Notes under the pieces: generated by a model
Told to the model about the DNA's origin: nothing
What the model saw: only the letters and a program-made list of their open reading frames with translations
The model's database searches: none
Position numbers and translations under genes: made by a program
Virus record (IMG/VR): IMGVR_UViG_2721755710_000007
Coordinates: 1 to 64,000 of that record
DNA length: 64,000 nucleotides
Reading direction: 5' to 3' (one strand)
Origin: a virus
Taxonomy: Duplodnaviria > Heunggongvirae > Uroviricota > Caudoviricetes
Part shown: in pieces, positions 2,327 through 62,000 of the stretch
How positions within the stretch are numbered: position 1 is the first letter of the stretch
How the letters are laid out: the number at the start of each line of letters is the position of its first letter

Positions 2327-5300
2327 CTATATTTTTCCGCCTACGCCTTTAAACTTCTCAATAAACGAGACGATTTTCTGGAAAACTGCCTGTTTTTTCG
2401 TTTTATATTGCGGATTTAACGGACTAAGTTTTGGTAATGTTTCGTTTAATTCTGTGCCATTTTCGGTGGCATATTCGCGTTTTAAAGACGTGCGAATATA
2501 GCGTTTTGCTGCATCTTCATTGAGATTTTCTTCTTTTATCAATGCTTCTGCTTCACGTTGCTGTTCGCGTTGAGCAAACGTAAAGAATGCGTCAATGATG
2601 CTGGCTTTGTCCGGTAAATCATCCAGGTTCGTTTGCTGAATAAAATCGACCACCAGGCCCTCTTTAGCACGGTTCCCTAGGCTTGAACGAATTAAGCGTT
2701 TGACCTCTTCGATCATTTCGCCCTTGCCTTTATTTTGTCTGTTGTGTTCGAAAATCAGTCCAAGGATATAATCCAGGTTTATTTCCTGAGACTTCAGCAA
2801 ATCGACCTCAAAAACTACGTCATCCCAGTCAGTGGTTGATTTCTCTTTTTTCTCAGCTTCTTTCTCACGGCGCTGCCAGTCGCGAATATCGTTATAGGCA
2901 GAACGATAATCCTGAATCTTGCGATCAGCAGGGAGACGAATTGTTTGCAATTTAGCGAACTTTTCATCATCCACATAATGCTCTGCTTTGAATTTTTCTA
3001 CCGCAACAGGATCGCTAAGATCGATTTGTTGCAGGGCTTTTAGCGTGGCAAATTCATCATAGTTTTGCAGGATGTTCTCGGCACGCAGGTATTCGCCAAA
3101 CAGTTTAACGAAGTCTTTCTTCTCTTTTTCACTTTCAATACTGGTAGGGTCAGGGAACCGTTGTTCCAGTTCTGAAACTACTGTCATAAAGCCGCGTTTA
3201 GCTTCACCAGTAGCAGCATCAGTAAAGCCTTCCATATACTCTGTATAACTCTTTTCTAACACCACATTTTTGGTGTTTTTGTCACCAAACAGCGTTATGG
3301 CATCAATAGTTGAGCGTTCCAGATCCCGGAAAGTGACGATATTACCGAAGGTTTTAGTAGCGTCATAAATGCGGTTGGTGCGGGAAAATGCCTGCATCAG
3401 GCCGTGAAAACGCAAGTTTTTATCGACGAATAGCGTGTTCAATGTTGGAGCATCGAAGCCGGTTAAAAACATCCCCACGACGATTAACAAGTCAACATCC
3501 TGATTTTTAACCCGCTGAGCCAGGTCCCGATAGTAGTTCTGAAAACCCTTGCTATCAGTACTGAAATTCATTTGAAAATGGTCGTTATATTCACGAATTG
3601 CAGCATCCAGAAACTCTTTAGCACTGCTGTCCATTGCGCTGGTATCAAAAGTTTCATCGGAAATTTCACCAATGGCATTTTGTTCTTCATTAGCGGCAAA
3701 GGAGAAGATTGTCGCAACACGCAGCGGTTTATAGGTAGCCGATTTATTAGCGGCTTCTTCTTGTAACCGTTTAAACGTCGCATAATAGGCTTTCGCGGCA
3801 TCCACGCTGCTCACTGCCAGCATGGCATTAAAGCCTTTGGAGCCTGGGAAGGTACGGTGGGTTTTCTGGCGGAAGTTGTTCAGGATATATTGCGTGATTT
3901 CCTGAATACGCATGGGATGAAGAAACGCCTGCTGATTTTCAGCCGCACTCAGTTTTTTCTCGTCAGTTTCTGTCTCTAAAGACTTAAACTGTGGCCGCAC
4001 ATCGTTGTAGTCCACCTTGAATTTGAGCACTTTTTCGTCACGAATCGCATCGGTAATTACATACGAATGCAATTCACGACCAAATACGCTGGCGGTTGTT
4101 TCTGAGCCTAAGGCGTTTTCCGGGAAAATAGGGGTGCCGGTAAAACCAAACTGATAATAGCGTTTGAATTTCTTCTTCAGGTTTTTCTGCGCTTCTCCAA
4201 ACTGGCTGCGGTGGCATTCATCAAATATAAACACCACTTGCTGATTATATACAGGCAGGTCGCTTTCTGCTTTCATCAGATTATTGAGTTTCTGAATAGT
4301 AGTGACGATAATTTTGTTATCGTCCTTATCCAGATTTCGTTTAAGGCCTGCGGTATTTTCCGAGCCGTTGACGCTGTCTGGCGAAAAACGCTGATATTCC
4401 TTCATGGTCTGGTAATCGAGGTCTTTCCTGTCGACCACAAAGAAGACTTTATCAATAAAGTCCAGCTCTGTTGCCAGACGCGCGGCTTTAAAGCTGGTGA
4501 GGGTTTTACCAGAACCGGTAGTGTGCCAGATATACCCACCGCTTTCCGGTTTTGACCAGTTCTTCGCTGTAAAGGAACTCTTAATTTTCCACAGAATGCG
4601 CTCGGTGGCGGCAATCTGGTACGGTCGCATCACCAGTAGCGTCTGACTACTGTCAAAAACGCTGTAGTTCACCAGAACATTCAGCAGAGTATGTTTCTGG
4701 AAAAAGGTAGCGGTAAAGTCTTTGAGGTCTTTAATCAGCGTGTTGTCTGATTTCGCCCAATTCATGGTGAAGTCAAAACTGTTTTTATCGCGCTTTGTCG
4801 TGTTGGCAAAATAACGGGTATCGGTGCCGTTAGAAATGACAAACAGTTGCAGATACTTAAACAGGGAATTTTCGCTGTTAAAACTCTCTTTACTGTAACG
4901 ATGTATCTGGTTGAAAGCCTCACGAATCGCCACCCCGCGTTTTTTTAGTTCGATTTGCACCAGCGGTAAACCATTAACCAGGATCGTGACGTCATAACGA
5001 TTAGCATGAGAACCCGTCTGTTCAAACTGCTGGATAATCTGCACCTTATTGCGCATGAGATTCTTTTTATCTATCAAATAGATGTTCTCAAGTCGCTCGT
5101 CATCAAAAATAAAGTCGCAAATATAGTCGATATGGATTTTACGGGTCTTATCCAGAATGCCATCGCTCGGGTTGTCCAGATACTGCTCCGTGAAACGCCG
5201 CCACTCGCTGTCATTAAACACCACACCATTGAGGCTCTGAAGCTGTTGTCGAACATTGGCCAGCATCGCCGACTGAGATTTTACGGATATAAATTCATAG

Positions 5301-5443
5301 CCCTGATTTCGCAGGTCCTGAATCAGTTCACGTTCCAGGTCCGATTCGCTCTGGTAGCTGTCGCCTGTTGGCTCAGCTTTGATGTACTTATCAAGAACGA
5401 TAAAGTTATTGGATTCAGCAATGGTGTGTGTCTGATGAGTCAT
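2327..5443 (-). CDS. hsdR: Type I restriction enzyme R subunit (1038 aa)
   Basis: Helicase motifs (TTGSGKT, DECH box); size matches Type IC HsdR; downstream of hsdM-hsdS. Confidence 0.85.
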
Positions 5444-5564: not shown

Positions 5565-6164
5565 TTAATTACTGACAGTTTCAGGTTTCGGGAAACTGAA
5601 CAGTAAATCACGGTAGTATTCGTATTGTTTCTGGCGCAACTCGATTTCACGCGGAAGACCTTCGGTGATGGAGTTAGTCAGGGTGTCGAAATTATCCAGA
5701 ATCCGAACGATTTCAGACTGGATGGCAAGGGATTTTTCCGGATTATCCGGGCAGGGGATTGGGATTTTTTTTTGAGAATAATTACTAATCCATTGGCGTT
5801 TATGGTCTCCCTCTGCGAATTCACTTGGTAATGTATTGAGCCAATAGTAAACATATTTCAGTAAGGTTTTATTATCATCACATGATGTAACCATTTTCAT
5901 AGCCGATGATTTTGCCTTAAAGTCAAAATCCACCCATTTATTAGCGGTGGTGAAATCATCAAAAATTATTACAGGTGCCTTTGATGCCTGATAAATACCA
6001 TGAGTCTCATTTGTGTATCCAAGAATAAATGTTTTTCCGGCAGTAAGAACCGGGATGGTATATGTGTCGTGATAATCTTTTGCTTTTACCAAATACTTTG
6101 TTGGCTGTTCATATTTGGTTATTTCCCCCAATGGCAACCACTCAACCTCAACCCCATCCAGCAA
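5565..6164 (-). CDS. hsdS: Type I specificity subunit, half-size with one target-recognition domain (199 aa)
   Basis: 24 bp downstream of hsdM; C-terminal conserved HsdS helix (...ILDNFDTLTNSITEGLPREIELRQKQYEYYRDLLF); only one TRD fits. Confidence 0.7.
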   Translation of the reverse strand: MLDGVEVEWLPLGEITKYEQPTKYLVKAKDYHDTYTIPVLTAGKTFILGYTNETHGIYQASKAPVIIFDDFTTANKWVDFDFKAKSSAMKMVTSCDDNKTLLKYVYYWLNTLPSEFAEGDHKRQWISNYSQKKIPIPCPDNPEKSLAIQSEIVRILDNFDTLTNSITEGLPREIELRQKQYEYYRDLLFSFPKPETVSN

Positions 6165-6188
6165 TTTTTCCAGATAAACTTAACTCGC

Positions 6189-7751
6189 TCATTTTTGCAC
6201 CTCGCAGCCTTCAATTTCAGCCACAATCGCATCAATATCTTTACGCAACTGGTCGATTTTGCTGACCGTGGTTTTCAGCTCAGCATTCAGCTCAGCAATA
6301 TCGATAATTTCGCGGTTATCTTTCGCTTCCACATAGCTGCTCACCGACAGGTTATAGTCATTAGCAACAACGGTCTCAAACGCGACAGATTTCGCCAGAT
6401 GAGCAACATCTTCCTTGCTGGCAAATACCTGCATAATCTGTTCGATATGGGTATCGGTCAGGATATTGTTGTTAGTCTCTTTTTTGAACAGTTCGCTGGC
6501 GTCAATAAACTGAACGTTGGTATCCGTTTTATGTTTGGACAGAACCAGAATGTTTACTGCAATGGTGGTGCCAAAGAACAGGTTCGGTGCCAGTGAAATT
6601 ACGGTTTCGACATAGTTATTGTCAATCAGATACTGACGGATTTTCTGCTCCGCGCCGCCACGGTAAAAAATACCCGGGAAGCAAACAATCGCAGCACGAC
6701 CTTTGGCAGAAAGATAGTTCAGCGCATGTAGTACAAAGGCGAAGTCAGCTTTTGATTTGGGGGCCAGAACGCCAGCCGGGGCAAAACGCTCATCGTTAAT
6801 CAGTGTCGGGTCATCGCTGCCAATCCATTTCACCGAATACGGCGGGTTAGAAACGATGGCATCAAACGGTTTTTCATCTCTGAAGTGCGGCTCAGTCAGT
6901 GTATTACCCAGCCTGATATCAAACTTGTCGTAGTTGATGTTGTGCAAAAACATGTTCATACGCGCCAGATTATAGGTCGTATGGTTGATTTCCTGACCGA
7001 AAAAGCCTTCTTCGATGATATGGTTATCAAACTGCTTTTTAGCCTGCAACAACAGTGAGCCGGAACCCGCTGCCGGGTCGTAGATTTTGTTAACGTTGGT
7101 CTGCCCGTGCATAGCCAGTTGTGCAATCAGCCTGGAGACGTGCTGCGGTGTAAAGAACTCACCGCCTGACTTACCAGCATTCGCCGCATAGTTAGAAATC
7201 AGGAACTCATAGGCATCGCCGAACAGGTCAATCTGATGTTCGTTAAAGTCGCCAAGCTTTAAGCCTTCAACCCCTTTCAGGACCGCAGCCAGGCGGGCAT
7301 TTTTATCCTTAACGGTGTTACCCAGGCGGTTACTGGTGGTATCGAAATCAGCAAACAGACCTTTGATGTCTGCTTCTGAAGGATAACCGTAAGCAGAACT
7401 TTCGATAGCAACGAAGATGCTGTTTAAATCTGCATTCAGTCTGTCATTGGTATTTGCTTTCGCCGCTACGTTGCAGAAAAGCTGACTGGGGTAGATGAAG
7501 TAGCCTTTAGTTTTGATGGCATCGTCTTTAATATCATCAGTAATTACGCTGTCATCCAGTTTCGCATAACAGATACTGTCATCACCGGCTTCAATATAGC
7601 TGGAAAAATTTTCGCTGATAAAACGGTAGAAAAGTGCGCCCAGAACGTATTGCTTAAAATCCCATCCATCGACCGAACCCCTGACATCGTTAGCAATTTG
7701 CCAGATTTGACGATGAAGCTCTGCACGTTGTTGAATACTTGTCATTTTCAT
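6189..7751 (-). CDS. hsdM: Type I N6-adenine DNA methyltransferase M subunit (520 aa)
   Basis: NPPY catalytic motif ([10 protein letters not shown]), AdoMet-binding region, conserved HsdM N-terminus. Confidence 0.85.
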
Positions 7752-9785: not shown

Positions 9786-9802
9786 ATTGCTCTAATGTAT
9801 TG
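9786..9802 (+). promoter_or_regulatory. C1 operator-like site
   Basis: attgctctaatgtattg. Confidence 0.5.
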
Positions 9803-9872
9803 ATATTTATTTAATCTATGGTATTATATTCCACGTTGATTAGTTGACATGGGCTAATCAGTAGGTGACAGG

Positions 9873-10325
9873 ATGTTACTTAACTGGCAGGGACGCCACT
9901 TCATGGAAATAAATCACTTACGAATAACATCGTATGAGATTGCGGATTACATGATCCGCACCAAATCTCTTCTATCAGCGAAAGAACTCGCAGCAATCCT
10001 TGAAAAGGAATACCCGCATCTGGATGTCGATAAGCGCGACGTTTATCTGCGCTTAAAGGCTATCGCTGTGTCTAAGTATTCGTCTGTTTTGATTGATGAC
10101 AGTACACGCCCACGTAGATTTCAGATCCACTCTCTGAATCCTGAATTCTTTCGCCGCAGCCGCGCTCCGCGCCGGTTTGATGAAAAACTCCAGAACGAAC
10201 TCTATATGACGCAGGACGAAAAGGAACGCCGGGAGCACCAGCCTTGGGTGATGGCGCGTCAACTTTTCAATAAGGTGGTCCGTCAGCACCGTCATTACGG
10301 TAATGCCACATCCGCACGTATCTGA
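9873..10325 (+). CDS. lpa: late promoter activator Lpa-like protein (150 aa; alternative start at 9903)
   Basis: Position immediately upstream of pacA and downstream of a C1 operator, as in P1; size fits. Confidence 0.5.
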   Translation: MLLNWQGRHFMEINHLRITSYEIADYMIRTKSLLSAKELAAILEKEYPHLDVDKRDVYLRLKAIAVSKYSSVLIDDSTRPRRFQIHSLNPEFFRRSRAPRRFDEKLQNELYMTQDEKERREHQPWVMARQLFNKVVRQHRHYGNATSARI

Positions 10326-10411
10326 TTGATTGCTTGCCCGTTCCGGGCCTTTTGACATGTGACTTTCGTTACCCTCGCGTCAAAAAGAGTTTTATACGAA
10401 AGGAAGCATAA

Positions 10412-10970
10412 GTGACCTGGGACGATCACAAGAAGAATTTTGCTCGCCTGGCGCGAGATGGTGGTTACACCATCGCACAGTATGCCGCCGAGTTTAATCT
10501 TAACCCTAATACCGCACGTCGTTATCTCCGTGCCTTCAAAGAAGACACCAGGACAGCGGACAGCCGCAAGCCAAATAAGCCAGTCAGGAAGCCTCTAAAA
10601 AGCATGATCATTGATCACGCTAATGATCAACGTGCAGGTGATCACATTGTGGCTGAAATGGCTGAAAAACAAAGAGTTAATGCTGTTGTCAGTGCCGCAG
10701 TTGAGAACGCTAAGCGCCAAAATAAGCGCATAAATGATCGTTCTGATGATCATGACGTGATCACCCGCGCCCAGCCGCCGCGCTGATGCCGCATTGTGGA
10801 TTGAGCATCGTAGAGAAGAAATTGCCGATATCGTCGATACAGGTGGTTATGGTGATGTCGATGCGGAAGGCATATCAAACGAAGCATGGCTTGAACAGGA
10901 TCTGGACGAAGACGAGGAGGAAGACGAAGAAGTTACCCGCAAACTGTACGGGGATGATGATTAATGGCCA
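10412..10970 (+). pseudogene. pacA: pacA, terminase small subunit, shortened and frameshifted
   Basis: N-terminal 124-codon ORF (10412-10786) with HTH-like start; acidic C-terminal tail (...[15 protein letters not shown]) is in another frame from about 10761; total about 180 codons. Confidence 0.6.
10605..10763 (+). other. pac packaging site (hexamer repeats with Dam GATC sites)
   Basis: Four TGATCA hexamers at 10605-10644 and three TGATC(A/G) at 10735-10763, the 4+3 arrangement of the P1 pac site. Confidence 0.8.
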
Positions 10971-12448
10971 GAAGTTGCGTAACGGACCCACGTTGGCGCG
11001 AGCTGGTGGCGCTATATCGTTATGACTGGATTGCGGCCGCTGATGTGTTGTTTGGGAAGACACCAACCTGGCAGCAGGATGAGATCATTGAGTCCACGCA
11101 GCAGGACGGCAGTTGGACAAGTGTGACCTCCGGCCATGGTACTGGTAAATCGGATATGACGAGTATCATTGCAATACTCTTCATCATGTTTTTCCCCGGC
11201 GCTCGCGTCATTCTGGTCGCTAACAAAAGACAGCAAGTCCTTGATGGTATTTTCAAATACATAAAGAGCAATTGGGCTACTGCTGTTAGCAGATTCCCGT
11301 GGTTGTCAAAGTATTTCATTCTTACAGAAACGTCTTTTTTTGAGGTGACTGGCAAGGGTGTTTGGACAATATTGATAAAGTCCTGTCGCCCCGGGAATGA
11401 GGAGGCGTTGGCTGGTGAACACGCCGATCATCTCTTGTATATCATCGACGAAGCGTCGGGTGTGAGTGATAAAGCATTCAGTGTGATAACAGGTGCGCTG
11501 ACCGGTAAGGATAACCGTATTCTGCTTCTTTCCCAGCCTACGCGACCTTCAGGCTATTTCTACGATTCACACCACAGACTAGCTATTCGCCCGGGAAATC
11601 CTGATGGATTGTTTACTGCGATAATACTGAATAGTGAAGAATCTCCGCTTGTAGATGCAAAATTTATACGAGCAAAACTTGCGGAGTATGGCGGTCGTGA
11701 TAACCCCATGTACATGATCAAAGTACGTGGTGAATTTCCCAAATCTCAAGATGGCTTTCTTCTTGGTCGTGATGAGGTTGAGCGGGCGACGCGGCGAAAG
11801 GTCAAGATTGCCAAAGGATGGGGCTGGGTTGCATGTGTTGACGTTGCTGGTGGCACAGGACGAGATAAGTCCGTTATTAATATCATGATGGTGTCCGGCC
11901 AGCGAAATAAACGCCGTGTAATCAACTATCGTATGCTGGAATACACAGACGTTACAGAAACGCAGTTAGCCGCCAAGATTTTCGCAGAATGTAACCCAGA
12001 ACGGTTCCCGAACATAACCATAGCTATTGATGGCGATGGCTTGGGGAAATCGACGGCTGATCTAATGTACGAACGCTATGGCATTACCGTCCAGCGTATC
12101 CGCTGGGGTAAAAAGATGCACAGCCGTGAAGATAAAAGCCTTTATTTCGATATGCGCGCTTTCGCGAATATTCAGGCGGCAGAAGCTGTAAAATCAGGGC
12201 GTATGAGGCTTGATAAGGGGGCTGCGACTATAGAGGAAGCATCAAAGATACCGGTAGGGATAAATTCCGCAGGTCAATGGAAGGTGATGTCAAAGGAAGA
12301 TATGAAGAAAAAACTCAACCTGCACTCACCGGACCATTGGGATACATATTGTTTCGCTATGTTGGCGAACTATGTTCCCCAGGATGAAGTGCTTAGCGTC
12401 GAAGACGAAGCGCAGGTTGATGAAGCTCTGGCATGGCTTAATGAATAA
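10964..12448 (+). CDS. pacB: terminase large subunit PacB (494 aa)
   Basis: 494-aa ORF overlapping the pacA tail; Walker A-like GHGTGKS; length matches P1 PacB. Confidence 0.85.
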
Positions 12449-12472
12449 CTCATTAACCATGCCGGATAGAAA

Positions 12473-13324
12473 CTATTGCGCGCTTTCGGGGTTGTCGTTT
12501 ACTGGCTGCCCCTTCTTAGTTTTACGGCTGCGCGTAACTGATGCGGCTGATTTGACCTTTTTCTCTTCGCGAGTGATGGCAATTTGTTTTTTTACATTTT
12601 CAATATCTGCCAGGCGATATATTTTTGCCTGCGGCCAGCGGTCGCAGATGATCGGTTCTATAGAGTCATAAAGGCTAAATTTTGCTTTCTCGAATTCACC
12701 GTTGATGATGATTCCATCACGGAGAGTTTCATCGCAGATAAACACACCACACAGCGGCACATGGTAACTAACTGATTTACCATCATTGTAGTTAGGGCTA
12801 CTGGAAATGTAATGGACGCGCAGCATTGTTTCGCTAAAGCCGTGTACACGCATACGGAATTTTTCATCCTCCGGGTACTGCTTCATTAGCTCTTTTGTTG
12901 CTTCCAGGTTCTCTATGTATTTCGCACTGTGCTCATTGATCCCCGCGCTTTTCTGGATGCGAATGTCCTTATCAATCAGATGAATAATGCGGCCAGCGGT
13001 CATGTTGACGCTGTTCACAGCTTCTGTCTGATAAGTTGTAACCTTACGCACACCGCGAAGGATGTTAGGCACTGGATATAAAATAGTCTTTGGGATATTG
13101 AGGTCTGGGTACTGTTCCAGTTCTCGCGCCATTAAAGTCCATTTATCAATTTCAGCCTGAATGCTGTCCGTTTCTTTGAACGGCAGAACGACAACCGGGC
13201 GTACAGGACGACCGTCGCTGGCGGCATCAACGTGTTGGGCGCGTGCAACAGCTTTTTTTAGAAAGAGATCCCTGAAGCTGACGAACTCCTGGTACAGTTG
13301 TTCGCCGTAGACATAATTTATCAT
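12473..13324 (-). CDS. c1: C1 master repressor of lysogeny (283 aa)
   Basis: Sequence matches P1 C1 as I recall it (MINYVYGEQLYQEFVSFRDLFLKKAV...); 283 aa. Confidence 0.9.
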   Translation of the reverse strand: MINYVYGEQLYQEFVSFRDLFLKKAVARAQHVDAASDGRPVRPVVVLPFKETDSIQAEIDKWTLMARELEQYPDLNIPKTILYPVPNILRGVRKVTTYQTEAVNSVNMTAGRIIHLIDKDIRIQKSAGINEHSAKYIENLEATKELMKQYPEDEKFRMRVHGFSETMLRVHYISSSPNYNDGKSVSYHVPLCGVFICDETLRDGIIINGEFEKAKFSLYDSIEPIICDRWPQAKIYRLADIENVKKQIAITREEKKVKSAASVTRSRKTKKGQPVNDNPESAQ

Positions 13325-13644: not shown

Positions 13645-14008
13645 AATTATGCCTCACTGTATTGACAACACAGAGCCTGAAGCTCTGACCTACTGTTTCA
13701 CCCATGATCCATGCTGGGGTAATCTAACAACATTGCGCTGTGTGTAAGATGAGCAATGCGGTGATGCTGCCAACTTACTGATTTAGTGTATGATGGTGTT
13801 TTTGAGGTGCTCCAGTGGCTTCTGTTTCTATCAGCTGTCCCTCCTGTTCAGCTACTGACGGGGTGGTGCGTAACGGCAAAAGCACCGCCGGACATCAGCG
13901 CTATCTCTGCTCTCACTGCCGTAAAACATGGCAACTGCAGTTCACTTACACCGCTTCTCAACCCGGTACGCACCAGAAAATCATTGATATGGCCATGAAT
14001 GGCGTTGG

Positions 14009-15461
<1,453 letters not shown>

Positions 15462-15586
15462 ATAGCTGTAATGCCGTTGTATAAGGTTTCCCTGTTTGCT
15501 CATTTCCTTCTGAGCCGCTCTACAACGCTGAAGACACATTAAATAGTGAATCCAAAGTCGTATTACGTAACGGCGGCAAAACTATA

Positions 15587-19962: not shown

Positions 19963-20652
19963 TCATAAATCTGATAGCCACTTACTATCTATGGACTCAA
20001 TCTCCGTCAGCGGAATTGATGGGAAAAAATATCCCTGAGCGCCCCATAGCCCTATCCCTTTTGATAACTTATGACAATCAATGTTTTCGACGCCTTCAGC
20101 GATGATATTCGGACATAACTTTTTTAAATTGCTAATAATGACATCAAAATGAGGCTTAATCATATGCTCTTGAAAAAATGACTTATCAAGTTTTATTGCA
20201 TGATATTTATTTTTAATTAATGCTTTCATGGTGGCGTTACCACTTCCAAAATCATCAAGCCAAACATTATCTGTCAAAGTCAGTAGAAAGGATATGACGT
20301 AATCCTCATCGCTTAAATCAGGATAGTTTTCTGATATCTCAATCGCTATAAATTTATTGTTTATTAGTAGTTCTTGAATTTGTTTATTGCCATATATATA
20401 TAAACAGGTATCATAATCTACATTGATAGAGCATAATATATTATGGCATTCAAAAAAACACTTATATTTGATTATTGTGTTAAGTTGAGATTTTAGCAAG
20501 TTAATCTTCATCTTGCTTGTAAATATACCTAATACTTTCTGAGTAGAAAGAATAGCCCCCTCGTTGGAATAAAATCTGCTCAACACTTCCACTGCTATCA
20601 ACTTGTTAGTGCTTGTGGAAATGATTGGTTCTACTATGTAGATAACTTCCAT
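19963..20652 (-). CDS. stand-alone EAL-domain protein, putative c-di-GMP phosphodiesterase (229 aa)
   Basis: EAL signature residues: EVLSR, IEISE, DDFGSG, KLDKSF, AEGVE, QGYFF. Confidence 0.7.
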   Translation of the reverse strand: MEVIYIVEPIISTSTNKLIAVEVLSRFYSNEGAILSTQKVLGIFTSKMKINLLKSQLNTIIKYKCFFECHNILCSINVDYDTCLYIYGNKQIQELLINNKFIAIEISENYPDLSDEDYVISFLLTLTDNVWLDDFGSGNATMKALIKNKYHAIKLDKSFFQEHMIKPHFDVIISNLKKLCPNIIAEGVENIDCHKLSKGIGLWGAQGYFFPSIPLTEIESIDSKWLSDL

Positions 20653-33177: not shown

Positions 33178-33455
33178 GTGACCTCCTGATGTGAAATCAC
33201 TATACCGAAGTGGTTTTTATTTTTTTTCACAAACAGGACTTTTTTCAGTGATTTTTTTCTGAGAATTATGAGGGGCGTGTCGTTGGTGCGATGCATACCG
33301 ATAGTGAATAACACCAGATGAGCTCGGGAACGGCATAGCGGGGTGTACTTATGTTCGGCAGAAAAGTAGCTTTTTCTGCAATGGGTATTCCTGATCCGGT
33401 GATTTGAAAAGTGCTGTTTTACTTACTAAGTTATACATATATCTAGTGCCACTTT

Positions 33456-33612
33456 TTAATCAAAAGTGACCCTAGGTTTTTTGCGCATAGTGCCACTTTT
33501 TAAAAAAGTGACCCTATGTCCTGTCTACATAGGGTCACTTTTCACAAAGAAGTGACCCTATGTCGAGGCTCCATAGGGCCACTTTTCAGCAAAAAGTGAC
33601 CCTATGTAATAG
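33456..33612. repeat. array of four tandem palindromic units (core AAAAGTGACCCTATGT / ACATAGGGTCACTTTT)
   Basis: Units begin near 33456, 33489, 33527, 33571; each has 12-14 bp inverted arms around a short spacer. Confidence 0.8.
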
Positions 33613-34189
33613 CCATTGTTAATCAATCGGAAAAATATTCATGCTAGCTCGCTCTTATCGCTAAGGTTATTGCTGCTTTCTGCCGATAACAGTGCAAGTT
33701 TTGCGATTTTTTTAAGCGCTTCACAGTTCGTTAGCAAGCTCAGTTTTTTTTGATAAAATTCTGGTCAGTTTGTTTAAAAAGTGTTACAAGTAAGGCGAAT
33801 GGTTGAATGGTTAGTTTTAAGACTCAAATCGGCAGTATTAAAATTCCAAAAGTAGCTTTTCATACTTCAAAAAACCAAACTTTAATTTCATGTAGAAGAG
33901 TTGTACTATTGTATTGACTCAAGGACAATCCGACATGTCAGAATCAGATAACATAACGCGTAACTATTACGTACCGAGGTTTCGATTATTCGTAGTTACC
34001 GTGCATTCCTAATGTTATTGCCTATCCATGATCTTCTTCGTATCAATCAGGGTCTCCACTCTTGCAACGCCGTCTATTTGGAGACGGATTTGGGACAATG
34101 ACTGATAATGCATTTGAAGTTGAAACTCGTCCGGGAAGTTTCCTCGTTCCACGTTCTTTAGGCAAAGAGATTTCCTGGGATAATTTTTT

Positions 34190-34720
34190 ATGGCTGTTGT
34201 CGATGGTGACACTAACGTTATTCGAGAATATGACAGTGACGATGCTGACTTCGGTATTTACAATGCTGGGGAAAAAGTTACTTTACTGTGTGGCCGGGAA
34301 GACTTTTATAATCCGACAAAAATTCAGCAGTTACGCTCTAAGTGTGTAGATATACAAAATGATTACTTTATTCAAATCTTCTTTATGTCAATGCTTGCAC
34401 CTGAGTTTGTCAGCATATTTTTTGGATTAAAGCCTGCCACCGCAGATGCAATAAAAGATGTTGGCGTTTCATCACTTAAAGCAATTAACGATGTTGTTCT
34501 CTTTCCGCGAACAATTGCCTTTACGCCAGGACTGGGGGATGATAGCACTACGTTAAAATCTAAAGTATTCGCCAGGGCATACGAATTATCTGCCGACATT
34601 CGTTTGGGTAAAGTTAGTGATGACTTAATGGAACTACTGCGTTACGACACTATGTTTACGTGTCACCGTCAGGATGTGTTTAACTCATTAGCAAATAAAG
34701 TGCTCTTGAAGGATTATTGA
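34190..34720 (+). CDS. hypothetical protein, 176 aa (an upstream out-of-frame ORF 34062-34349 may be a frameshifted N-terminus)
   Basis: ORF divergent from the two-gene operon; ends 7 bp before IS1 copy 3. Confidence 0.4.
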   Translation: MAVVDGDTNVIREYDSDDADFGIYNAGEKVTLLCGREDFYNPTKIQQLRSKCVDIQNDYFIQIFFMSMLAPEFVSIFFGLKPATADAIKDVGVSSLKAINDVVLFPRTIAFTPGLGDDSTTLKSKVFARAYELSADIRLGKVSDDLMELLRYDTMFTCHRQDVFNSLANKVLLKDY

Positions 34721-34726
34721 ATATGG

Positions 34727-35494
34727 GGTAATGACTCCAACTTATTGATAGTGTTTTATGTTCAGATAATGCCCGATGACTTTGTCATGCAGCTCCACCG
34801 ATTTTGAGAACGACAGCGACTTCCGTCCCAGCCGTGCCAGGTGCTGCCTCAGATTCAGGTTATGCCGCTCAATTCGCTGCGTATATCGCTTGCTGATTAC
34901 GTGCAGCTTTCCCTTCAGGCGGGATTCATACAGCGGCCAGCCATCCGTCATCCATATCACCACGTCAAAGGGTGACAGCAGGCTCATAAGACGCCCCAGC
35001 GTCGCCATAGTGCGTTCACCGAATACGTGCGCAACAACCGTCTTCCGGAGACTGTCATACGCGTAAAACAGCCAGCGCTGGCGCGATTTAGCCCCGACAT
35101 AGCCCCACTGTTCGTCCATTTCCGCGCAGACGATGACGTCACTGCCCGGCTGTATGCGCGAGGTTACCGACTGCGGCCTGAGTTTTTTAAGTGACGTAAA
35201 ATCGTGTTGAGGCCAACGCCCATAATGCGGGCAGTTGCCCGGCATCCAACGCCATTCATGGCCATATCAATGATTTTCTGGTGCGTACCGGGTTGAGAAG
35301 CGGTGTAAGTGAACTGCAGTTGCCATGTTTTACGGCAGTGAGAGCAGAGATAGCGCTGATGTCCGGCGGTGCTTTTGCCGTTACGCACCACCCCGTCAGT
35401 AGCTGAACAGGAGGGACAGCTGATAGAAACAGAAGCCACTGGAGCACCTCAAAAACACCATCATACACTAAATCAGTAAGTTGGCAGCATCACC
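34727..35494 (-). mobile_element. IS1, copy 3
   Basis: Identical to copy 2, same orientation, with insA/insB ORFs (35164-35439, 34742-35245). Confidence 0.95.
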
Positions 35495-36968
35495 TATCAA
35501 TGGCCTGGGCAATACTTTCCGTCGAAAATGATTGCAACATATTGCCGATATCCTCAAATCCAAGTGATTTGAGAGCCTCACCAATGGCGCTGCTAATACC
35601 AGATACCAGTCCCCCCATATCAAGAACATTAGCTAACGTATAAGCGGCTTTTTGCTGGAATGATGGATCTTGTCCTGATTTAAGCCCAAACGCTCGACGT
35701 TGCGCTTCTGTATCATTCCAACCGGTTACCGCATCATAAATACCTCCAGCCACTGTGCCGACTAGGGGAATTGCGCGTAACGCCCCTTTACCAACTGCCT
35801 TTAATCCAAGTTTACCTGCTGCCCGGGCAGCCAAATCTCCGCCTTCATGGGCGAGAGTCTTCTTGCCACCACCGCGTAGCATTCCTACAAGTTTCTTTGC
35901 CCCCAGAGCGCCAAAAGCGAGTGCTCCAGCTTTTTTCAGCATGCCACGCCCCATTAACAACGACGCGACGCCACCGGCCCCCTTCCCTAACAGGCTAAAT
36001 AGTTTGGACAGCAAGCCGCCCTTCTTTTTCCCGGTGTTTTTGGCTATCTGATCAAGGGCACGGAGAATCTTGTCATTGCCCTCTTTAATTTCGCTGGTCT
36101 GCTCCTGAAGTTCCTGAACCGTCCGTTTTTGGGTGTTAACCTGAACGACATCGGCACTATTTTGCGATTTACGCCTAAAAAAACCTTTTCTACGGCTGTT
36201 ATCGTCGTTGCCACGAATCACATCGGCAATAGACTTTCTGGCACCATTAAGCGATCCACCAACTTCTTTTGATATCCCGCCAAGCTCCTTCCCTGCTGCC
36301 CACAATGGACCAGCAACGGCATAACCTAACGCATCGACGGCACGAGTCTCTGAAGGGTTACCTATGCCTTCAGCTACTTTTGACAGTTTTTTTAATAAAC
36401 CTGATTCAGCATTTAGACGCTCATCATCCTCTTTGCGCCTGGCCTTTTCAGCACGTTCAGCACGGGCATCTTCCGCTGCGGCCTTACTCCCTGACTTTCC
36501 AATAAAACGACCACGCGCATCGCGTTGGTTTTGGCTTTTTTGCGCACCGCCTTTTTGACCGAACATTTCGCGAGCGTGTTCGGCTGCTTCGGTCCGTTGC
36601 GCCTTTACATCTTCTGTTATAGCCTTCTTGCGTCGTTTTTTACCCTTTCGCGTAGTTGATTTGGCCTGCGGTTCCTGTAGAGCAACATCCTCCTGAACTA
36701 CACGAGAAACGTCCCCTAAATTAAGCCGTTTCATTGCCTCAACAATAGGGTCCACTGATGGCGCATTGGCCACAAAGTCTGGCCGGGAATTTTCGATTGT
36801 GCGATTTAATGCCGACACACTGCGAGAGACAGGATCAACTGTAGCAACTCGCCCACCTTTCAAATCTTCAACGGCTTCCCGAATACCTGCAAGCTCTTCC
36901 AGCTCTTTTGCGCTGGCGGTTTCAACCGTCCTTATCACATCGTCAATGTTGGCGTTTTTTCTTTCCAT
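35490..36968 (-). pseudogene. phage structural protein (tape-measure/Sit-like), C-terminally truncated by IS1
   Basis: 492-codon ORF whose last sense codon and stop lie in the IS1 terminal repeat; Gly/Lys/Ala-rich tape-measure-like composition. Confidence 0.5.
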
Positions 36969-49873: not shown

Positions 49874-51601
49874 TTACTCAGAGTCACCGGCATCAATCGT
49901 GTCGCCGCTAATGAAGTTAAGCCCGCCTTTTTTGGCCATTGTCAGCGTTACACGAGTGAAGTAATCAGCGCCGTTGCGTGGGTGCATATCGTTGATAGCC
50001 GAACCCCACAGCGTGGTACGGTTGACCAGCGCCGGAGTGGTCGGATGCTGGAACGGGATGGCCGGGACAGCATCACCAGTCACGAAGCCTGCTTTACCCG
50101 GATTTTCATCACGGACGTAGCACAGCACATCCATCGAGCTGAACTGAATGTTCTCTGTCGTTAAGTTCTTACAAATACCAGCAGGTACTTCGTACACTTT
50201 CACGTTACCGAACAGGGTACCGATGTAGTGAACATACGGAGTCTGGATATAGTCTTCGGCTGGCTGGAAGAAATCCTTCGGCAACTGTTTGAAGAAAGAT
50301 GCTGCATCAGCACCAGCAAACATCCCCATCGCACCAGAAGATTTAACGCGCTCAATAATGTCGCGATATACAGTCTGGAATTTGCCACGAATGATGGTTG
50401 CCCATACATCAAAGGACTGGTTAACCGGCAGAGCGATGTCAAAGGTATCGGTCGCAAGAGTACGCCAGATCATGATGCGGAGACGCAACATATCCTGTTC
50501 ATGGGACAGGTATTCTTTCAGGGTGCGGAACTGTAGGGAACCCAGGTCCAGACCAAATTCACGCTGTGCTTCATACGCCGCCTGTACCGTGTGCTCAGCC
50601 GCGATAACGAACTGGCTTGGGAACAGGGTGTATTTCTTCATTTCGTGGTTGATCAGCGGGATCAGCTCAGGAGCGGCTTCAATATTGATTTCCGTCTCAA
50701 TTGCGATCTCAGTGCCTTTATCCGGCGCTTTGGAGAACGACAGGGCAATCTGACCAATGTTGTAGTTCAGAGAGCAGGTAACAGTGATTTGCTCACCAGC
50801 AGCATTAGTAAACGAGTGAAGTAGGCTGCCGGAACCGTTATCAACAACAGACTTAATACGGTTAACGTAGATGTTAGTACGACCTTTTCGGATTGGTACA
50901 TTCTGGCCTTCGAAGTCTTCCATCTTGAAGGTTGCGGTTTTGCTGGTGCCATCGGAGCTTGCCACCAGCACATAGCGGCGACGTAACTGGCTGTACACAC
51001 CGACGGATTGCATGTCCAGAACATCACCAGCAGCATAAGAACCAAAAGAGGAACCTGCCACGTTAAAGACTTCATAGATGTCGGACTGGTCACGCGTAAC
51101 CGGAATGAAGGTACACGCATCAGCGGTAGCTGCCCCCAACTGAACCGGCAGGATCATCGCGAGGAATAAAGGCAGACGCATAACACCGTCAGAAACGCTC
51201 ATCATCTCTGCTGCGACGGATTCCAGCATCGCTTTATTAGTGGCATCCATGCTATTGCGGGTGGACTCAATCAGGCAGTTTTCCAGCGTCTGGTGGCAGG
51301 AGGCCAGAATTTCCGGACGCGGCATAGATTTATGTGCTGCGGCGTAGTCAGCCAGTGCACTTGCCCACGCTGTAGCGATTTGAGCGGTGGCATTATCAGA
51401 GATACCCGCAAAAACCGGGTCTTTACGTGCAGCTTCAAGGATAGATGCGGCACGCGCGGCATCATCTTTAATGAATTGGTTATCAGTACCGAACTGCGCA
51501 GTGCTTGCCCAGCCAAGCACAGCTTTAGAGCGTTTTGCGATATCTGCAATACGATTCTGGTATTCGCGTAAGTTACTCAATTTACTCTTCCTTAAACACA
51601 A
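49874..51601 (-). CDS. major head protein-like (up to 575 aa)
   Basis: Large ORF immediately before parB, as P1 gene 23. Confidence 0.5.
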   Translation of the reverse strand: MCLRKSKLSNLREYQNRIADIAKRSKAVLGWASTAQFGTDNQFIKDDAARAASILEAARKDPVFAGISDNATAQIATAWASALADYAAAHKSMPRPEILASCHQTLENCLIESTRNSMDATNKAMLESVAAEMMSVSDGVMRLPLFLAMILPVQLGAATADACTFIPVTRDQSDIYEVFNVAGSSFGSYAAGDVLDMQSVGVYSQLRRRYVLVASSDGTSKTATFKMEDFEGQNVPIRKGRTNIYVNRIKSVVDNGSGSLLHSFTNAAGEQITVTCSLNYNIGQIALSFSKAPDKGTEIAIETEINIEAAPELIPLINHEMKKYTLFPSQFVIAAEHTVQAAYEAQREFGLDLGSLQFRTLKEYLSHEQDMLRLRIMIWRTLATDTFDIALPVNQSFDVWATIIRGKFQTVYRDIIERVKSSGAMGMFAGADAASFFKQLPKDFFQPAEDYIQTPYVHYIGTLFGNVKVYEVPAGICKNLTTENIQFSSMDVLCYVRDENPGKAGFVTGDAVPAIPFQHPTTPALVNRTTLWGSAINDMHPRNGADYFTRVTLTMAKKGGLNFISGDTIDAGDSE

Positions 51602-51846: not shown

Positions 51847-52812
51847 TTATTCCCCAGCAGACATTTTCCCAATGATTTTTTTTATTGCTTCGTCAATTTC
51901 AGTTTGCACTTCAGACGGGAGTCTGGAGAACTCGTAGGCGACAACCCGTTTTTTCGGATCGGACTTCTTTCGGGCATATTGGCGACGGTCAGAGAAGTCT
52001 CGCAGCTTCTCAACCACCACAGATTTAACCGGCGCGGGCTTCAGGCTTTTGCTTTCCGCTTTGAAGATAGCCAGTATCTTCGCTTTATCCTCTTTCGCGC
52101 CCTCAGTCTCTGCAATTCGTTCGCGCACCGTATCAACCAGCTCTTCAATCGGCACGCTTTTAGCGTTAGCATCCTCGGCGATCTGGAGCAGTAACTGGTA
52201 ATCTGGAAGGGCGAGCTCGCTGGCTACGGGGAAGACAGCAATCATCTCATCCGGCACCGCGGCAGCCTGGAAAGCTCGCGTCACTTTAGCCTTTGAGATG
52301 TTCTCAGCTCGGGCGATCTCTTCTTTGGTCATATTCTTACCGTACATAACCTCGAAGCGTTTACCCAGCTCGCGCAGAGTGTGTTCGCGGGCTGTCTGGA
52401 TATCAATGGCCAGCTGGCGGGCATCCGCCAGGCTGATCTCATCTTTCGTCACCAGAATCTCAAATTTCGTTTCATTGAAGATACACGCAGCACGGCGACG
52501 CGATCCGTCCAATACCTCAATGCGCTCCCCAACCATACGACCGATAGCCGGGAAGAACTGTTGCAATTTAATGGTGCGGGAAATATCGCTTACCGACTCA
52601 GGGGTGAGCAGAGACTGATCGCGGCCGTTAACTGCCGGGTCAACGAACGTGCGCGACTCAATCTCACCACTCAGCACGACGGTAAGCAAGAATTTAGCCT
52701 GGCGGCCAGATTTTAGGGTAAAGGTTTTGGTGCCTTCACTGCCTTCAAGCATGCGAGCAAACTCGGAGCTATTCTTGCCCAGCACTCGTCCACGGGAAAC
52801 TATTTTTTTCAT
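51847..52812 (-). CDS. parB: ParB partition protein (321 aa)
   Basis: ParB motifs (ILDGSRRR, KVTRA); overlaps parA stop. Confidence 0.85.
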   Translation of the reverse strand: MKKIVSRGRVLGKNSSEFARMLEGSEGTKTFTLKSGRQAKFLLTVVLSGEIESRTFVDPAVNGRDQSLLTPESVSDISRTIKLQQFFPAIGRMVGERIEVLDGSRRRAACIFNETKFEILVTKDEISLADARQLAIDIQTAREHTLRELGKRFEVMYGKNMTKEEIARAENISKAKVTRAFQAAAVPDEMIAVFPVASELALPDYQLLLQIAEDANAKSVPIEELVDTVRERIAETEGAKEDKAKILAIFKAESKSLKPAPVKSVVVEKLRDFSDRRQYARKKSDPKKRVVAYEFSRLPSEVQTEIDEAIKKIIGKMSAGE

Positions 52813-54020
52813 GCCGCCTCACCCCTAACAAACTCAATTCGATCAAACACAGCCTTAGTGAAACGCTCGGCCTCGGTTCGTGCCTTCTTCAGCGCCTCTG
52901 CACTGCCTGGATACGATTGCGGGTTGGCACTGATTACGGTGTCGAAAGACTCGCCGCATCGCTCAAATCCATCCAGACGAGGCAGAGAAGAGTCCAGAAT
53001 GTTGCTGGCGTAAACCTCACGCGCAAGGCTGTGTGATGTCTCGTGATCGCGCTTGCCGGTCATCTTCGACATAAAACCAATGCTGGCGCTTAAACGCGGT
53101 TCTACGCCTTCCTCCTCCAGTTGCTCCAGCATTTCTGGCAGACGGGTGAGATATTTCAGTGTTGAGTGGAAGTCAACCTGGGCTGGTGGGGTAGGGGTAA
53201 GCAGCAAATCGCTGGCCGCCAGACCGTTGAGCAGGAACGGATCCAGGTGTGGACCGGTATCAATAAAGATAAAGTCATAATCATCCGCAACACGATCAAT
53301 GATATTGCGTCGAAGGATTTCGTACTGATTTTGTCCGGGAAGATGCTCTTCAACCAGCTCTTTCCATTGGCTGGCAACAAAGCCATCGTCGATAGAGGCT
53401 GGAATCACGTCTACGCCAGGAACGATGGTCGGACGAATCACCTCTTTGCGTAGCGTCTCCGCGTCCAGGTCGTTCAGCATCGCCTGCGCGGCGGTTTCCA
53501 GGATGGAACCAATACTGTGAGTATGGTCGAGGAACATTGTGCTGGATGCCTGAGGGTCAAGGTCAATTACCAGAATGCGCAGATCGTGACGCAGTAAATC
53601 CTGATGCACACGCAGAGCGTGCGCCAACGTGACTGTGGAAACCGTTTTGGATACGCCACCCTTCAGGTTTACGACAAAAATAACGTAAGGCGATTTGTGA
53701 ATGTCGCGATATTTTGGGATCTTACGGTGGGCATAGATATCAATGACGTTCTGGATGGTCAGCGCGTACTGTTCAACGTTACCGACCTGTTTCTTGTTGA
53801 ACTGGTACCCATCATCTTCCATCTCTTTGATGGCCTGCTCCACAATGCGGCGGCTCAGCTTCGGCAACTTTGCCACAGCGTTACGAGTGAACGTCTGATA
53901 ATACTCGGTCTGATTGAACTCTTTGCGCTGATCTTCAATATCCTGGCTCATGGCCTTAAGTAATGCGCTTGCACGAAGAGCTATGGTGCCGACACCGCCG
54001 TAATCGCGTTTCATCATCAT
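52809..54020 (-). CDS. parA: ParA partition ATPase (403 aa)
   Basis: Deviant Walker A (NLKGGVSKT) and strong resemblance to P1 ParA. Confidence 0.9.
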   Translation of the reverse strand: MMMKRDYGGVGTIALRASALLKAMSQDIEDQRKEFNQTEYYQTFTRNAVAKLPKLSRRIVEQAIKEMEDDGYQFNKKQVGNVEQYALTIQNVIDIYAHRKIPKYRDIHKSPYVIFVVNLKGGVSKTVSTVTLAHALRVHQDLLRHDLRILVIDLDPQASSTMFLDHTHSIGSILETAAQAMLNDLDAETLRKEVIRPTIVPGVDVIPASIDDGFVASQWKELVEEHLPGQNQYEILRRNIIDRVADDYDFIFIDTGPHLDPFLLNGLAASDLLLTPTPPAQVDFHSTLKYLTRLPEMLEQLEEEGVEPRLSASIGFMSKMTGKRDHETSHSLAREVYASNILDSSLPRLDGFERCGESFDTVISANPQSYPGSAEALKKARTEAERFTKAVFDRIEFVRGEAA

Positions 54021-59058: not shown

Positions 59059-62000
59059 AAGAGCTGTGCTATGGATCTGTTTGCAGTGGAATTGAAGCCG
59101 CGAGTATTGCCTGGGAACCGTTGGGTATGCGTCCGGTTTGGTTTGCTGAAATCGAGCCTTTTCCATCGGCCGTTCTTGCGCTCCGCTGGCCCCATGTCGC
59201 CAACCTTGGCGACATGACAAAACTTGCCAAAAAAGTCTAGGCTGGGGAAATCGAATCCCCTGACGTGCTCGTCGGGGGAACACCATGTTTTACCGCGGGG
59301 CATATGGTTCTTTGTAAAAATGGTTATAAACCAATAGAAGATATTTGCCCTGGCGATTACGTAGTCAGTCATCTCGGGCGGTTACAACAAGTAAAAAGAG
59401 TTGGTTCAAAAATAGCTAATACGGGGTTACTTAATGCCGTTGGGCAGCCTTTAGGTATAAGAACAACCAATGACCATCCCTTCCTGGCGGTTCGGTGGAA
59501 AGCCCAAAACACCCGGAAAAATGGCACATATTTTAAGAGAGAGTTGTTGTCTGAACCGGAATGGCGAGCAGCATGTGATATGCCGGGATATCAATGGTGC
59601 GCTCTAACTAATTTCAATATTGCATCTCCAGATATTTGTTCTCGGTTCTTGTCTGAAGAACAGGCTATGTATCTTGCGGGCGCTTATGTTGGCGATGGAT
59701 ATATTAGGAGATGGAGAGGTAAATCTAAGAAGGCGGTTGTTTTTGGCATAAATTGCCAGAAATTGAGAAAGTTTCATTGCCGCATACCAGAAAACATATT
59801 TTCCGTGGCAAGCGAAATCCGAGGGAGCATCAAAGTAACCTTGAATGATACGTGTTATGCCAATTGGCTTAATGAACATTTTGGCGAGTTAAGCCATGCT
59901 AAGCGTATCCCTGCATGGGTGATGTCGCATCCATTGCGTCATGTGTTTTTACAAGGCTATCTTGATACTGATGGGACACCAAGTGGTAAAGCGGGATTTA
60001 GAATTAATAGTGTTAGTCCTGCGCTTGCTTGGGGCGTTGCGGGGTTGTCACAGACTTGTGGTTATGTTTCTTCGGTCAGCTTTATTGAAGTTGAGCCCAA
60101 AAAAGTGATCGAGGATCGCGTGGTAAATCAACGGAATTATTATCAGGTAACAATCTGCCCGCAGAAATTGTCACGTAAATCAAGATTGGCTCATGGAATG
60201 CTTTTACGAACAGTCAAAGAGTTTAAATCGGTAGGCCTAGATACTGTATACAACATAGAAGTCGAAGGTGATCATTCCTATATCCTCAATGGTGCGGTGG
60301 TCCATAACTGTCAGGCATTCAGTATCGCGGGATTACGTGGTGGGCTTGATGATGAGCGTGGCGCGCTAACTTTAAAGTATGTGGAGCTTGCAAATGCAAT
60401 TGACGACAAACGGGCTGAGTCATTTCTCAAACCAGCCGTTATCGTCTGGGAAAATGTCCCAGGAGTCTTGTCATCGGCAGATAACGCCTTCGGATGTTTC
60501 CTTGCCGGATTGGCTGGAGAAGATGCGCCATTTGAACCAGGTGATCGACCTGAATCAGGAAAAAGTAACGCGTTCTGGCGGTGGGATGGCAAAACCGGTT
60601 GCCATGCTCCAAAGTGGCCGCAGTGTGGTTGTATTTATGGGCCGCAGCGAAAGGTGGCCTGGAGAATCCTTGATGCCCAATACTTCGGAGTGGCACAACG
60701 ACGCCGACGCGTGTTTGTTGTCGCAAGTGCTCGAACAGACCTCGATCCCGCAACGGTACTTTTTGAGTTCGAAGGCGTGCGCCGGAATATTGCGCCGAGC
60801 CGAAAAAAGAAGGAAATCGCTTCCGCCATTACTGCAAATGGCGCTGCAATCAGTGGCGAAAGCCTAAATCCATGCCTACACGCTGGCATGTCCCCCGGTA
60901 TGAAATCGACGAAAGCCGTAAACGGTTTCAGGATGGCGGCATTTGGGGAATATATTGACGATGAAACCGCATCGACAGTAAAGGCAAGAGACTTTAAAGA
61001 TGCCACTGACCTTGCTGTTTTTAGCAGCACAGGAGCAGGTTTTTGGTCAGAAGGGCATGGTACATTGCGGGCTCGTGAGCAAGAAAGCCATGAGCATCTT
61101 GTTACATTGGCTTTTCCTGAGCGTATGAGCGGTACACAACATGCTGCAACTAAGAATACTTCACCATCTCTAATGGCTAAAAATCCAACAGCTGTTTGCT
61201 ATGAAGTAAGAAACGCAGAAGTAGCTGTCCGCCGTCTTACCCCTGTCGAATGTGAAAGGCTGCAAGGTTTTCCTGATGGGCATACGTTGATCCCGACGGA
61301 AAAGCGTAAAAAAGTTAATTCAGATGAACTGGCATATCTTCGCAATCACTATCCAGATTTAAGCGAAGAAGAGGCCGCGATGCTTGCAGCTGACGGACCG
61401 CGTTACAAAGCGATCGGCAATAGTATGGCAATACCAGTAATGCGCTGGATTGGCGATCGGATTACTAAGGCCGTATGTCGGCAGAAAGAAGGAAGTGAAA
61501 CAAAAGAGCGAAAAGTTAAACCAGCGGCAGAATTCGAACGGTCCATATTCAAATGGGCTGGTGGAAAATTTGGTGTTCTGGAACAAATCTTTCGCTATTT
61601 GCCAGAAGGGAAGCGCCTGATTGAACCTTTCGTCGGTGGTGGAGCTGTCTTCATGAATGCCGGATACCAGGAAAATCTGCTAAATGATGTGAATGCTGAC
61701 CTGATTAACTTTTACAAGACTCTGCAACGCGAGGCGCATTCACTTATCACTCTGGCTCATCGTTTCTTCTTGGACTACAACACCCAGGAGGGATTCCTGG
61801 CAGTACGGAATGCGTTTAACAAACAAGTCTATGATGATTTACATCGCGCAGCGGCGTTTTTGTTCCTGAACCGACATTGTTTTAACGGATTGACGCGTTA
61901 CAACCAGGCCGGTGAGTTCAATGTCGGTTATGGGAAGTATAAAACTCCGTATTTCCCATTACAGGAGATGGAAGCCTTCCTCGGTGCGGAAGGTCGTTCT

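Follow-up and report, generated by a model that had tools for sequence, protein, structure and literature searches.

Does the short pacA gene found in a P1-like element represent a natural variant, an error, or a lesion, and what would a lesion mean for the element that carries it? The gene lies in a stretch of 64,000 nucleotides (the window; positions 1 to 64,000 of IMG/VR virus record IMGVR_UViG_2721755710_000007), where the region 9800-12800 follows the order of phage P1: lpa, a short pacA-like region, pacB, and c1 on the opposite strand. An initial annotation, made from the sequence alone, held that pacA had lost internal sequence and its reading frame while the pac site and pacB remained whole. 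Comparison with P1, with close plasmid relatives and with public genome collections makes it very probable that pacA in the window is a pseudogene, carried by an IncY plasmid of P1 descent that had by then ceased to be a phage.

The pacA lesion and its junction

The pacA gene of P1 (AF234172) is 1,194 nt long and encodes 397 aa, in keeping with the figure of about 400 aa given in the initial annotation. Alignment with this gene, which the annotation had proposed as a check, confirms an internal deletion with a frameshift: there is one internal gap in 10412-10964, of 641 bp, corresponding to pacA nt 363-1003, where the annotation had estimated about 600 bp missing. Pairwise alignment with P1 places the break at approximately 10771-10777. 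The same single 641-bp deletion appears in an ungapped comparison with p22Q34-2 (NZ_ON934557.1), a complete, circular E. coli IncY plasmid of 113,939 bp; the match runs through pacA nt 362 (…CCGCGCCCA) and resumes at nt 1004 (GCCGCCGCG…), which sets the junction between 10773 and 10774. In p22Q34-2, the left parental site reads CCGCGCCCA before the breakpoint and CCGTACC after it, and the right parental site reads GGGCCGCCA before the breakpoint and GCCGCCGCG after it. The two sites have only CCA in common, within the imperfect GC-rich repeats GCGCCCA and GCCGCCA, and the G+C content across 10760-10790 is 77%. A size of 640 bp and a microhomology of 7 bp, taken from overlapping BLAST pieces, were corrected to 641 bp and 3 bp by the ungapped comparison; the smaller size arose because P1 lacks one A that the window has in the 5' leader at approximately 10394. 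This extra A, downstream of LPpac, is present in p22Q34-2 and is not connected with the lesion.

Because 641 (3 x 213 + 2) is not a multiple of three, the reading frame shifts, and a single deletion event accounts for both the shortening of pacA and the +1 frame change that had been noticed near 10761-10786. Alignments with P1 and p22Q34-2 contain no further indel in pacA or pacB. On the right side of the junction, the stretch 10771-13900 matches p22Q34-2 at 100% identity, and on the left side the sole difference is a synonymous T/C at 10702. Neither the deleted segment nor a second copy of pacA was found elsewhere in the 64-kb window. Identity to P1 is only 97% in the left arm and 99.7-100% in the right arm, a divergence that had suggested recombination between two diverged P1 lineages as the route of deletion; this was ruled out because p22Q34-2, whose pacA is intact, shows the same mosaic.

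What remains of PacA is split between two frames, with P1 PacA residues 1-120 aligning by tblastn at 10412-10771 and residues 333-397 at 10767-10961, and with no homology along the whole length in a single frame. The open reading frames and the alignment thus bear out the description of a 124-codon N-terminal frame followed by a frame change into the acidic tail that overlaps pacB. At the junction, codon 121 reads CAG, and the 5' frame ends in Q-P-P-R-stop. The 3' remnant keeps 63 codons out of frame with 100% nucleotide identity to P1 and p22Q34-2; its frame is open from 10761 to the stop codon at 10962-10964, where the TAA overlaps the pacB ATG as TAATG (10962-10966), an overlap kept only in this out-of-frame remnant.

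The 124-aa fragment matches PHROG family phrog_1711 over profile positions 1-118 of 417. Its residues 7-45 match HTH_23, HTH_24 and HTH_28, all under the Pfam gathering scores and just as in the full-length relative, and the weak HTH_23 match, together with that to phrog_1711, indicates that the N-terminal helix-turn-helix (residues 10-44) is retained. Searches of Pfam, NCBIfam and PDB sequences for the lost PacA domains returned only the sub-threshold N-terminal helix-turn-helix matches, and no solved PacA homologue was found in the PDB sequence search. On the general model of small terminase subunits, the lost residues 121-397 may include the regions for oligomerisation and large-subunit contact. 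PacA of P1 acts in pac cleavage together with PacB, IHF and HU. Both pacA and pacB are essential in P1, in which CRISPRi against pacA gave an efficiency of plating below 1.2e-7 (PMC10695390, whose table also lists amber mutants); with approximately 70% of the protein truncated, PacA function has presumably been lost, in line with the defective small subunit that the initial annotation had predicted.

The pac site, promoters and neighbouring genes

The pac site, which had been read as complete (4 + 3 hexamers) inside the 124-codon frame, is so: all seven hexamers were found, one of them as TGATCG. Seven TGATCR sequences occur within 166 bp, compared with approximately 0.15 expected from the rest of the window (Poisson P = 2.4e-10), and all seven contain GATC, cleavage of P1 pac in vivo being dependent on Dam methylation. 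They have the HEX4/HEX3 layout of the 161-bp pac site of P1 (PMC10028697). The deletion starts 10 bp past the last hexamer, so that pac is complete and lies within the 5' fragment. A synonymous C-to-T substitution at 10702, inside pac and approximately 6 bp to the right of the mapped cuts, is absent from p22Q34-2, P1 and two other assemblies that bear the deletion.

The packaging locus of P1 (AF234172 / NC_005856, 90529-93206) shares with the window the order lpa, LPpac, pacA containing pac, pacB, c1, a nucleotide identity of 97-100%, the 4+3 TGATCA/G hexamers, the IHF site, the cut region and the TAATG overlap, but encodes a PacA of 397 aa, whereas the product in the window, with nt 363-1003 lost and the frame shifted, is 124 aa. 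The initial view of pacB as intact holds, the ORF being 494 aa long and 100% identical to P1 PacB in amino acid sequence. A promoter of pacB (PpacB) is predicted only in the P1 annotation, and its sequence is retained in the window; a consensus scan of 10250-11100 detected no sigma-70-like site, PpacB included. The coordinates of these and other features are given in Table 1.

Table 1. Features of the packaging locus and of the wider element, in window coordinates
Feature	Position	Strand	Description and basis
hsdS	5565-6192	-	Single target-recognition domain; adjoins hsdM (6189-7751) and hsdR (2327-5443)
lpa, late-promoter activator, intact	9873..10325	+	150 aa; 98.7% aa identity to P1 Lpa, full length
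LPpac late promoter	10357..10375	+	Homology to P1 annotation (P1 90475-90493)
pacA 5' fragment	10412..10786	+	GTG start, 124 aa: 120 native codons + QPPR + TGA (10784-10786); ORF list and alignments
pac site	10605..10763	.	Pattern search and P1 annotation mapped via alignment
pac HEX4 hexamers	10605, 10612, 10624, 10639	+	TGATCR pattern search
pac IHF site	10667-10679		P1 annotation mapped through alignment
pac cut positions (four)	10687-10696		P1 annotation mapped through alignment
pac HEX3 hexamers	10735 (TGATCG), 10747, 10758	+	TGATCR pattern search
Deletion junction	10771..10776	.	CCA at 10771-10773 is the 3-bp microhomology; 641 bp absent between 10773 and 10774
pacA 3' remnant (codons 335-397, acidic tail)	10774..10964	+	Out of frame with the 5' fragment
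PpacB, predicted sigma-70 promoter	10825..10853	+	P1 91583-91611 mapped; prediction in P1 annotation only
pacB, large pacase/terminase subunit, intact	10964..12448	+	494 aa; 100% aa identity to P1 PacB; phrog_2 terminase large subunit
c1 repressor, intact	12473..13324	-	283 aa; 99.6% aa identity to P1 C1
darB remnant	22365..24182	-	aa 1651-2255 of 2255 (last 605 residues); left edge of the ~30-kb loss; blastn and tblastn against P1
Autotransporter	26190-29687	-	1,165 aa; in IS1-bounded cargo
IS3-family element	29735-31008		In IS1-bounded cargo
mobI (A/C-type) and neighbouring gene	31973-33177		In IS1-bounded cargo
IS1 (34726-35495) abutting truncated sit	34726..36968	-	sit truncated to aa 1-501 of 1140; right edge of the ~30-kb loss

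Gene content of the wider element

Compared with P1 over its whole length by blastn, the window is a P1 backbone with large gaps. The segment P1 12285-42920 (approximately 30 kb) is absent, and with it the genes for the portal, head processing, lysis, tail fibres and baseplate as well as half of sit; window 24182-35495 stands in its place. P1 res/mod is also replaced, and the pmgT-humD block is replaced by a type I hsd locus. When 60 P1 proteins were compared with the window by tblastn, prt (portal), pro, lyz, ssb, darA, lydA, lydB, cin, S, U, R, 16, bplA and pmgA were not found in it, and gp23, 22, 21, tub, repL, kilA, cre and repA were present at full length. The window therefore does not contain the full set of virion, packaging and lysis genes of a functional P1-like phage-plasmid, to which the tail-fibre genes S/U/R, the baseplate genes 16/bplA and the lysis genes lyz/lydAB belong along with prt, pro, sit and pacAB. 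Modules for maintenance and immunity are present (RepA, Phd and Doc 100%, C1 99.6% and Cre 99.1% identical to P1), as are repL, kilA, cre and the lox region (97-99% identical). The par module is of another type than that of P1, with ParA 58% and ParB 43% identical (51865-54005) alongside a RepA that is 100% identical. The major capsid protein gp23 (49877-51580) and PacB (10964-12445) both have 100% protein identity to P1 in an element that cannot form particles, which suggests that the loss of phage function was recent.

The segment 24182-35495 is cargo bounded by IS1 that includes toxin-antitoxin genes in addition to those listed in Table 1. Three identical copies of IS1 are present in the window (13760, 31169 and 34726). 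The first of these positions begins a complete IS1 with a directly adjoining IS5-like fragment (13760-15464; 92.5% identical to IS5) in the imcB/imcA region between coi and lox, an insertion that p22Q34-2 and LR883966 plasmid 2 have in common with the window. The region that replaces P1 res/mod contains an EAL-domain gene (19963-20652). The dmt gene (Dam-family methyltransferase) has approximately 1 kb more than in P1, at 59288-60309; in p22Q34-2, a single protein of 1,025 aa is annotated there, compared with 754 aa in P1.

Closest relatives and distribution of the allele

The plasmid p22Q34-2 is more than 99.9% identical to the window along all 64 kb, with both edges of the P1 12285-42920 loss, the IS1/IS5 insertion next to coi, the autotransporter cargo and the hsd locus. 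Unlike the window, it has an intact 1194-nt pacA even though the whole P1 12285-42920 block is absent, and LR883966 plasmid 2, with the same cargo and the same 30-kb loss, likewise has an intact 1194-nt pacA. In addition, p22Q34-2 has an extra IS1-flanked segment of 7.6 kb (GGDEF/EAL genes, a phytase-like esterase and an extra IS1) that is lacking in the window (window 31937, 34726), and the window lacks almost all of its MobH/TraI relaxase remnant, keeping mobI and no relaxase; both differences are IS1-mediated rearrangements between very close relatives. The hsdS gene of p22Q34-2 has two target-recognition domains (TRDs), which are identical and encoded by two near-identical 489-bp repeats, with a TAEL-repeat spacer typical of the EcoR124/EcoDXXI family. 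That of the window differs by 608 bp rather than 609, which results in a frameshift after codon 5. The remaining ORF starts at TTG and encodes 199 aa, and the gene may specify an HsdS of half the usual size or be a pseudogene.

With a 251-bp probe across the pacA junction, matches were obtained in 558 E. coli genome records and in 569 plasmids, every one of them split into two halves, and the junction was not found in 5,426 complete E. coli genomes, in PLSDB, or in one genome per GTDB species. This absence had first suggested a unique or artefactual allele, an idea rejected when an exact-protein look-up found the exact 124-aa product on 18 public contigs. Two of the 18 were fetched, the 85.6-kb contig JACVWO010000003.1 of NCBI assembly GCA_016820335.1 and a Logan assembly of SRR20950784, and both have the identical junction. 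At 10702, both have C, the ancestral base, where the window has T, the only difference over 6.4 kb. With the junction in two independent assemblies and the truncated protein on 18 contigs, the pacA deletion is a real allele inherited in a small lineage rather than an assembly error, and the window is a further member of this lineage with one later substitution.

Order of events and predicted consequences

The most probable course is that one illegitimate deletion, mediated by the CCA microhomology within GC-rich imperfect repeats, removed pacA nt 363-1003, probably through replication slippage or an end-joining-like process. Translation shifts at codon 121 and stops four codons later, leaving a fragment of 124 aa that keeps only the N-terminal helix-turn-helix region. 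Without PacA, PacB would be unable to recognise or cut pac, and self-started headful packaging would not be expected. Ribosomes now stop 178 nt short of the pacB ATG; any translational coupling at the native TAATG overlap would thus be lost, and the expression of pacB may also be reduced by polarity. Intact in sequence are still pac and pacB, lpa and c1, cre/lox, and the C1-controlled lytic replicon kilA-repL.

The deletion probably followed the loss of the portal, head-processing, lysis, tail-fibre and baseplate genes. Both p22Q34-2 and LR883966 plasmid 2 share the 30-kb loss and keep pacA, and by parsimony the block was lost first and part of pacA later. The complete sequence of p22Q34-2 suggests that the morphogenesis block is absent outside the 64-kb window as well. 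As genes for morphogenesis and lysis had already been lost, the pacA lesion would leave the phage phenotype of the element unchanged: the element would be unpackageable and uninducible as a phage whatever the state of pacA, and the lesion would not be the cause of its defectiveness. The lesion is best read as the neutral decay of a gene without further use. That the allele persists in no fewer than 18 assemblies may be due to clonal spread or to mild selection, and the other phage genes are strikingly intact, placing pacA among few point-of-function lesions and leaving some room for a selective reading.

Alternative explanations

Loss of pacA may have been selected, since a plasmid without particles would then no longer cut itself at pac upon derepression. 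In such a circuit, loss of C1 would lead through Lpa and LPpac to PacA and PacB, which would cut the plasmid's own pac, with plasmid loss and Doc-mediated killing as the outcome. Apart from pacA, the circuit is complete, since the window has intact copies of lpa, LPpac, pac, pacB and phd/doc; the deletion, 10 bp past the last hexamer, struck one of the few late functions still active; and the allele has persisted, gained a later single-nucleotide substitution and reached 18 contigs. However, p22Q34-2 and LR883966 plasmid 2 keep the full 1194-nt pacA despite the same 30-kb loss. Among PLSDB records, approximately 570 have a P1-type PacA (at least 90% identity) compared with approximately 488 that have a P1-type portal; approximately 80 records thus retain a P1-type PacA in the absence of a P1-type portal, and PacA matches of P1 type cover the full length in nearly all cases, which argues against recurrent loss of pacA in such derivatives. 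A single lineage is no evidence of selection, and adaptive inactivation is considered unlikely.

The element may instead be a natural phagemid that depends on a helper, with a superinfecting or co-resident phage of P1/P7 type supplying PacA, PacB and particles, and pac being kept for hitch-hiking. The pac site is complete, one synonymous substitution away from the closest relative; the element has kept repL, kilA, cre and the lox region, with the high identity to P1 given above; and a resident P1 is able to package engineered plasmids that bear pac (PMC10028697). On the other hand, pac lies within retained coding sequence, and its survival requires no selection; a homoimmune helper would be impeded by the C1 immunity of the resident element and by IncY incompatibility; and relatives with intact pacA would do likewise, which leaves the deletion unexplained. 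Helper dependence is therefore judged quite unlikely. In a very unlikely extension of this idea, the pacA-null, pac-positive plasmid would be a natural P1 phagemid or satellite that avoids cutting itself upon derepression and is efficiently amplified, packaged and transduced by a superinfecting P1/P7-type helper; once the helper had activated the late promoter, the 124-aa helix-turn-helix fragment made from it might attach to pac and either modulate the pacase of the helper or interfere with it.

A functional short PacA, whether a natural short isoform or the product of a +1 ribosomal frameshift (10761-10784) fusing the helix-turn-helix fragment to the acidic tail, is extremely improbable. In favour of such a product, the tail frame, open from 10761 onwards, shares 24 nt with the end of the 5' ORF, and the tail is 100% conserved. 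Yet the deletion, absent from a 99.9%-identical relative, fully accounts for the frame change, and the fusion would still miss approximately 214 residues, or approximately 54% of the protein. Conservation of the tail is expected from the recency of the event and from the position of the tail directly upstream of pacB, whose start codon it overlaps. Relatives have one uninterrupted pacA ORF rather than a conserved shift, and no slippery motif is recognisable. The initial annotation had allowed that P1-like pacA genes might naturally be this short and in one frame; instead, 572 of 600 PLSDB records encode at least 80% of the 397-aa PacA by tblastn, all 16 full phage records that cover the locus have the extra ~640 bp, and there is no class of short PacA among the approximately 600 records. 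In a megablast comparison with the phage collection, window 9800-12500 (2,701 bp) corresponded to approximately 3,340 bp in P1, P7, SJ46, RCS47 and other full punavirus records, always as two pieces.

A sequencing or assembly artefact, with a full-length pacA in the source molecule, would agree with the absence of the junction from all the complete E. coli genomes, PLSDB records and GTDB representatives searched, but there is hardly any chance of it given the identical junction in the independent NCBI and Logan short-read assemblies, the truncated protein on 18 contigs, the absence of the deleted segment from the rest of the window, and a loss of 641 bp with 3-bp microhomology and no flanking repeat, which is atypical of assembler or long-read errors. 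An engineered deletion was rejected, there being no marker or scar and the allele occurring in several public assemblies of unrelated origin. Engineered P1 pacA/pac phagemid mutants (PMC10028697) resemble the window in that pac function is separated from PacA function, but those alleles destroy the hexamers and keep PacA, whereas the natural allele, free of any marker or scar, does the reverse.

Implications for P1-derived plasmids

The decay of P1-like phage-plasmids into plasmids with resistance and mob genes has been documented (PMC10879196). Like the window, those derivatives have a P1 backbone without lysis, tail and other virion genes, carry IS-borne cargo and conjugation-related genes (in the lineage of the window, mobI and MobH remnants), and are kept as plasmids. 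The losses reported there are at the level of gene repertoire, and the pacA microdeletion allele is not described among them. The locus itself, with the P1 pacase and pac site, is known; the deletion that turns pacA into a pseudogene is undescribed but ordinary.

For annotation, to which most of the weight of the finding is confined, pacA should be marked as a pseudogene, with pac and pacB intact, and its carrier as a P1-derived IncY plasmid that has ceased to be a phage. The element should not be counted among the phage-plasmids that are able to transduce. Since GATCACCCGCGCCCAGCCGCCGCGCTGATGCC, the sequence of the junction, occurs in none of the complete E. coli genomes and PLSDB plasmids that were searched, it is a handy lineage marker. 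Only if the element were in fact a helper-dependent phagemid would the allele bear on the spread of defective P1 plasmids with accessory cargo. The pacA lesion is a later step on the known path from P1 phage-plasmid to plasmid (PMC10879196), and it offers a clean, datable case of stepwise decay, in which, by parsimony, an IS1-associated loss of 30 kb came first and a microhomology deletion in a packaging gene followed.
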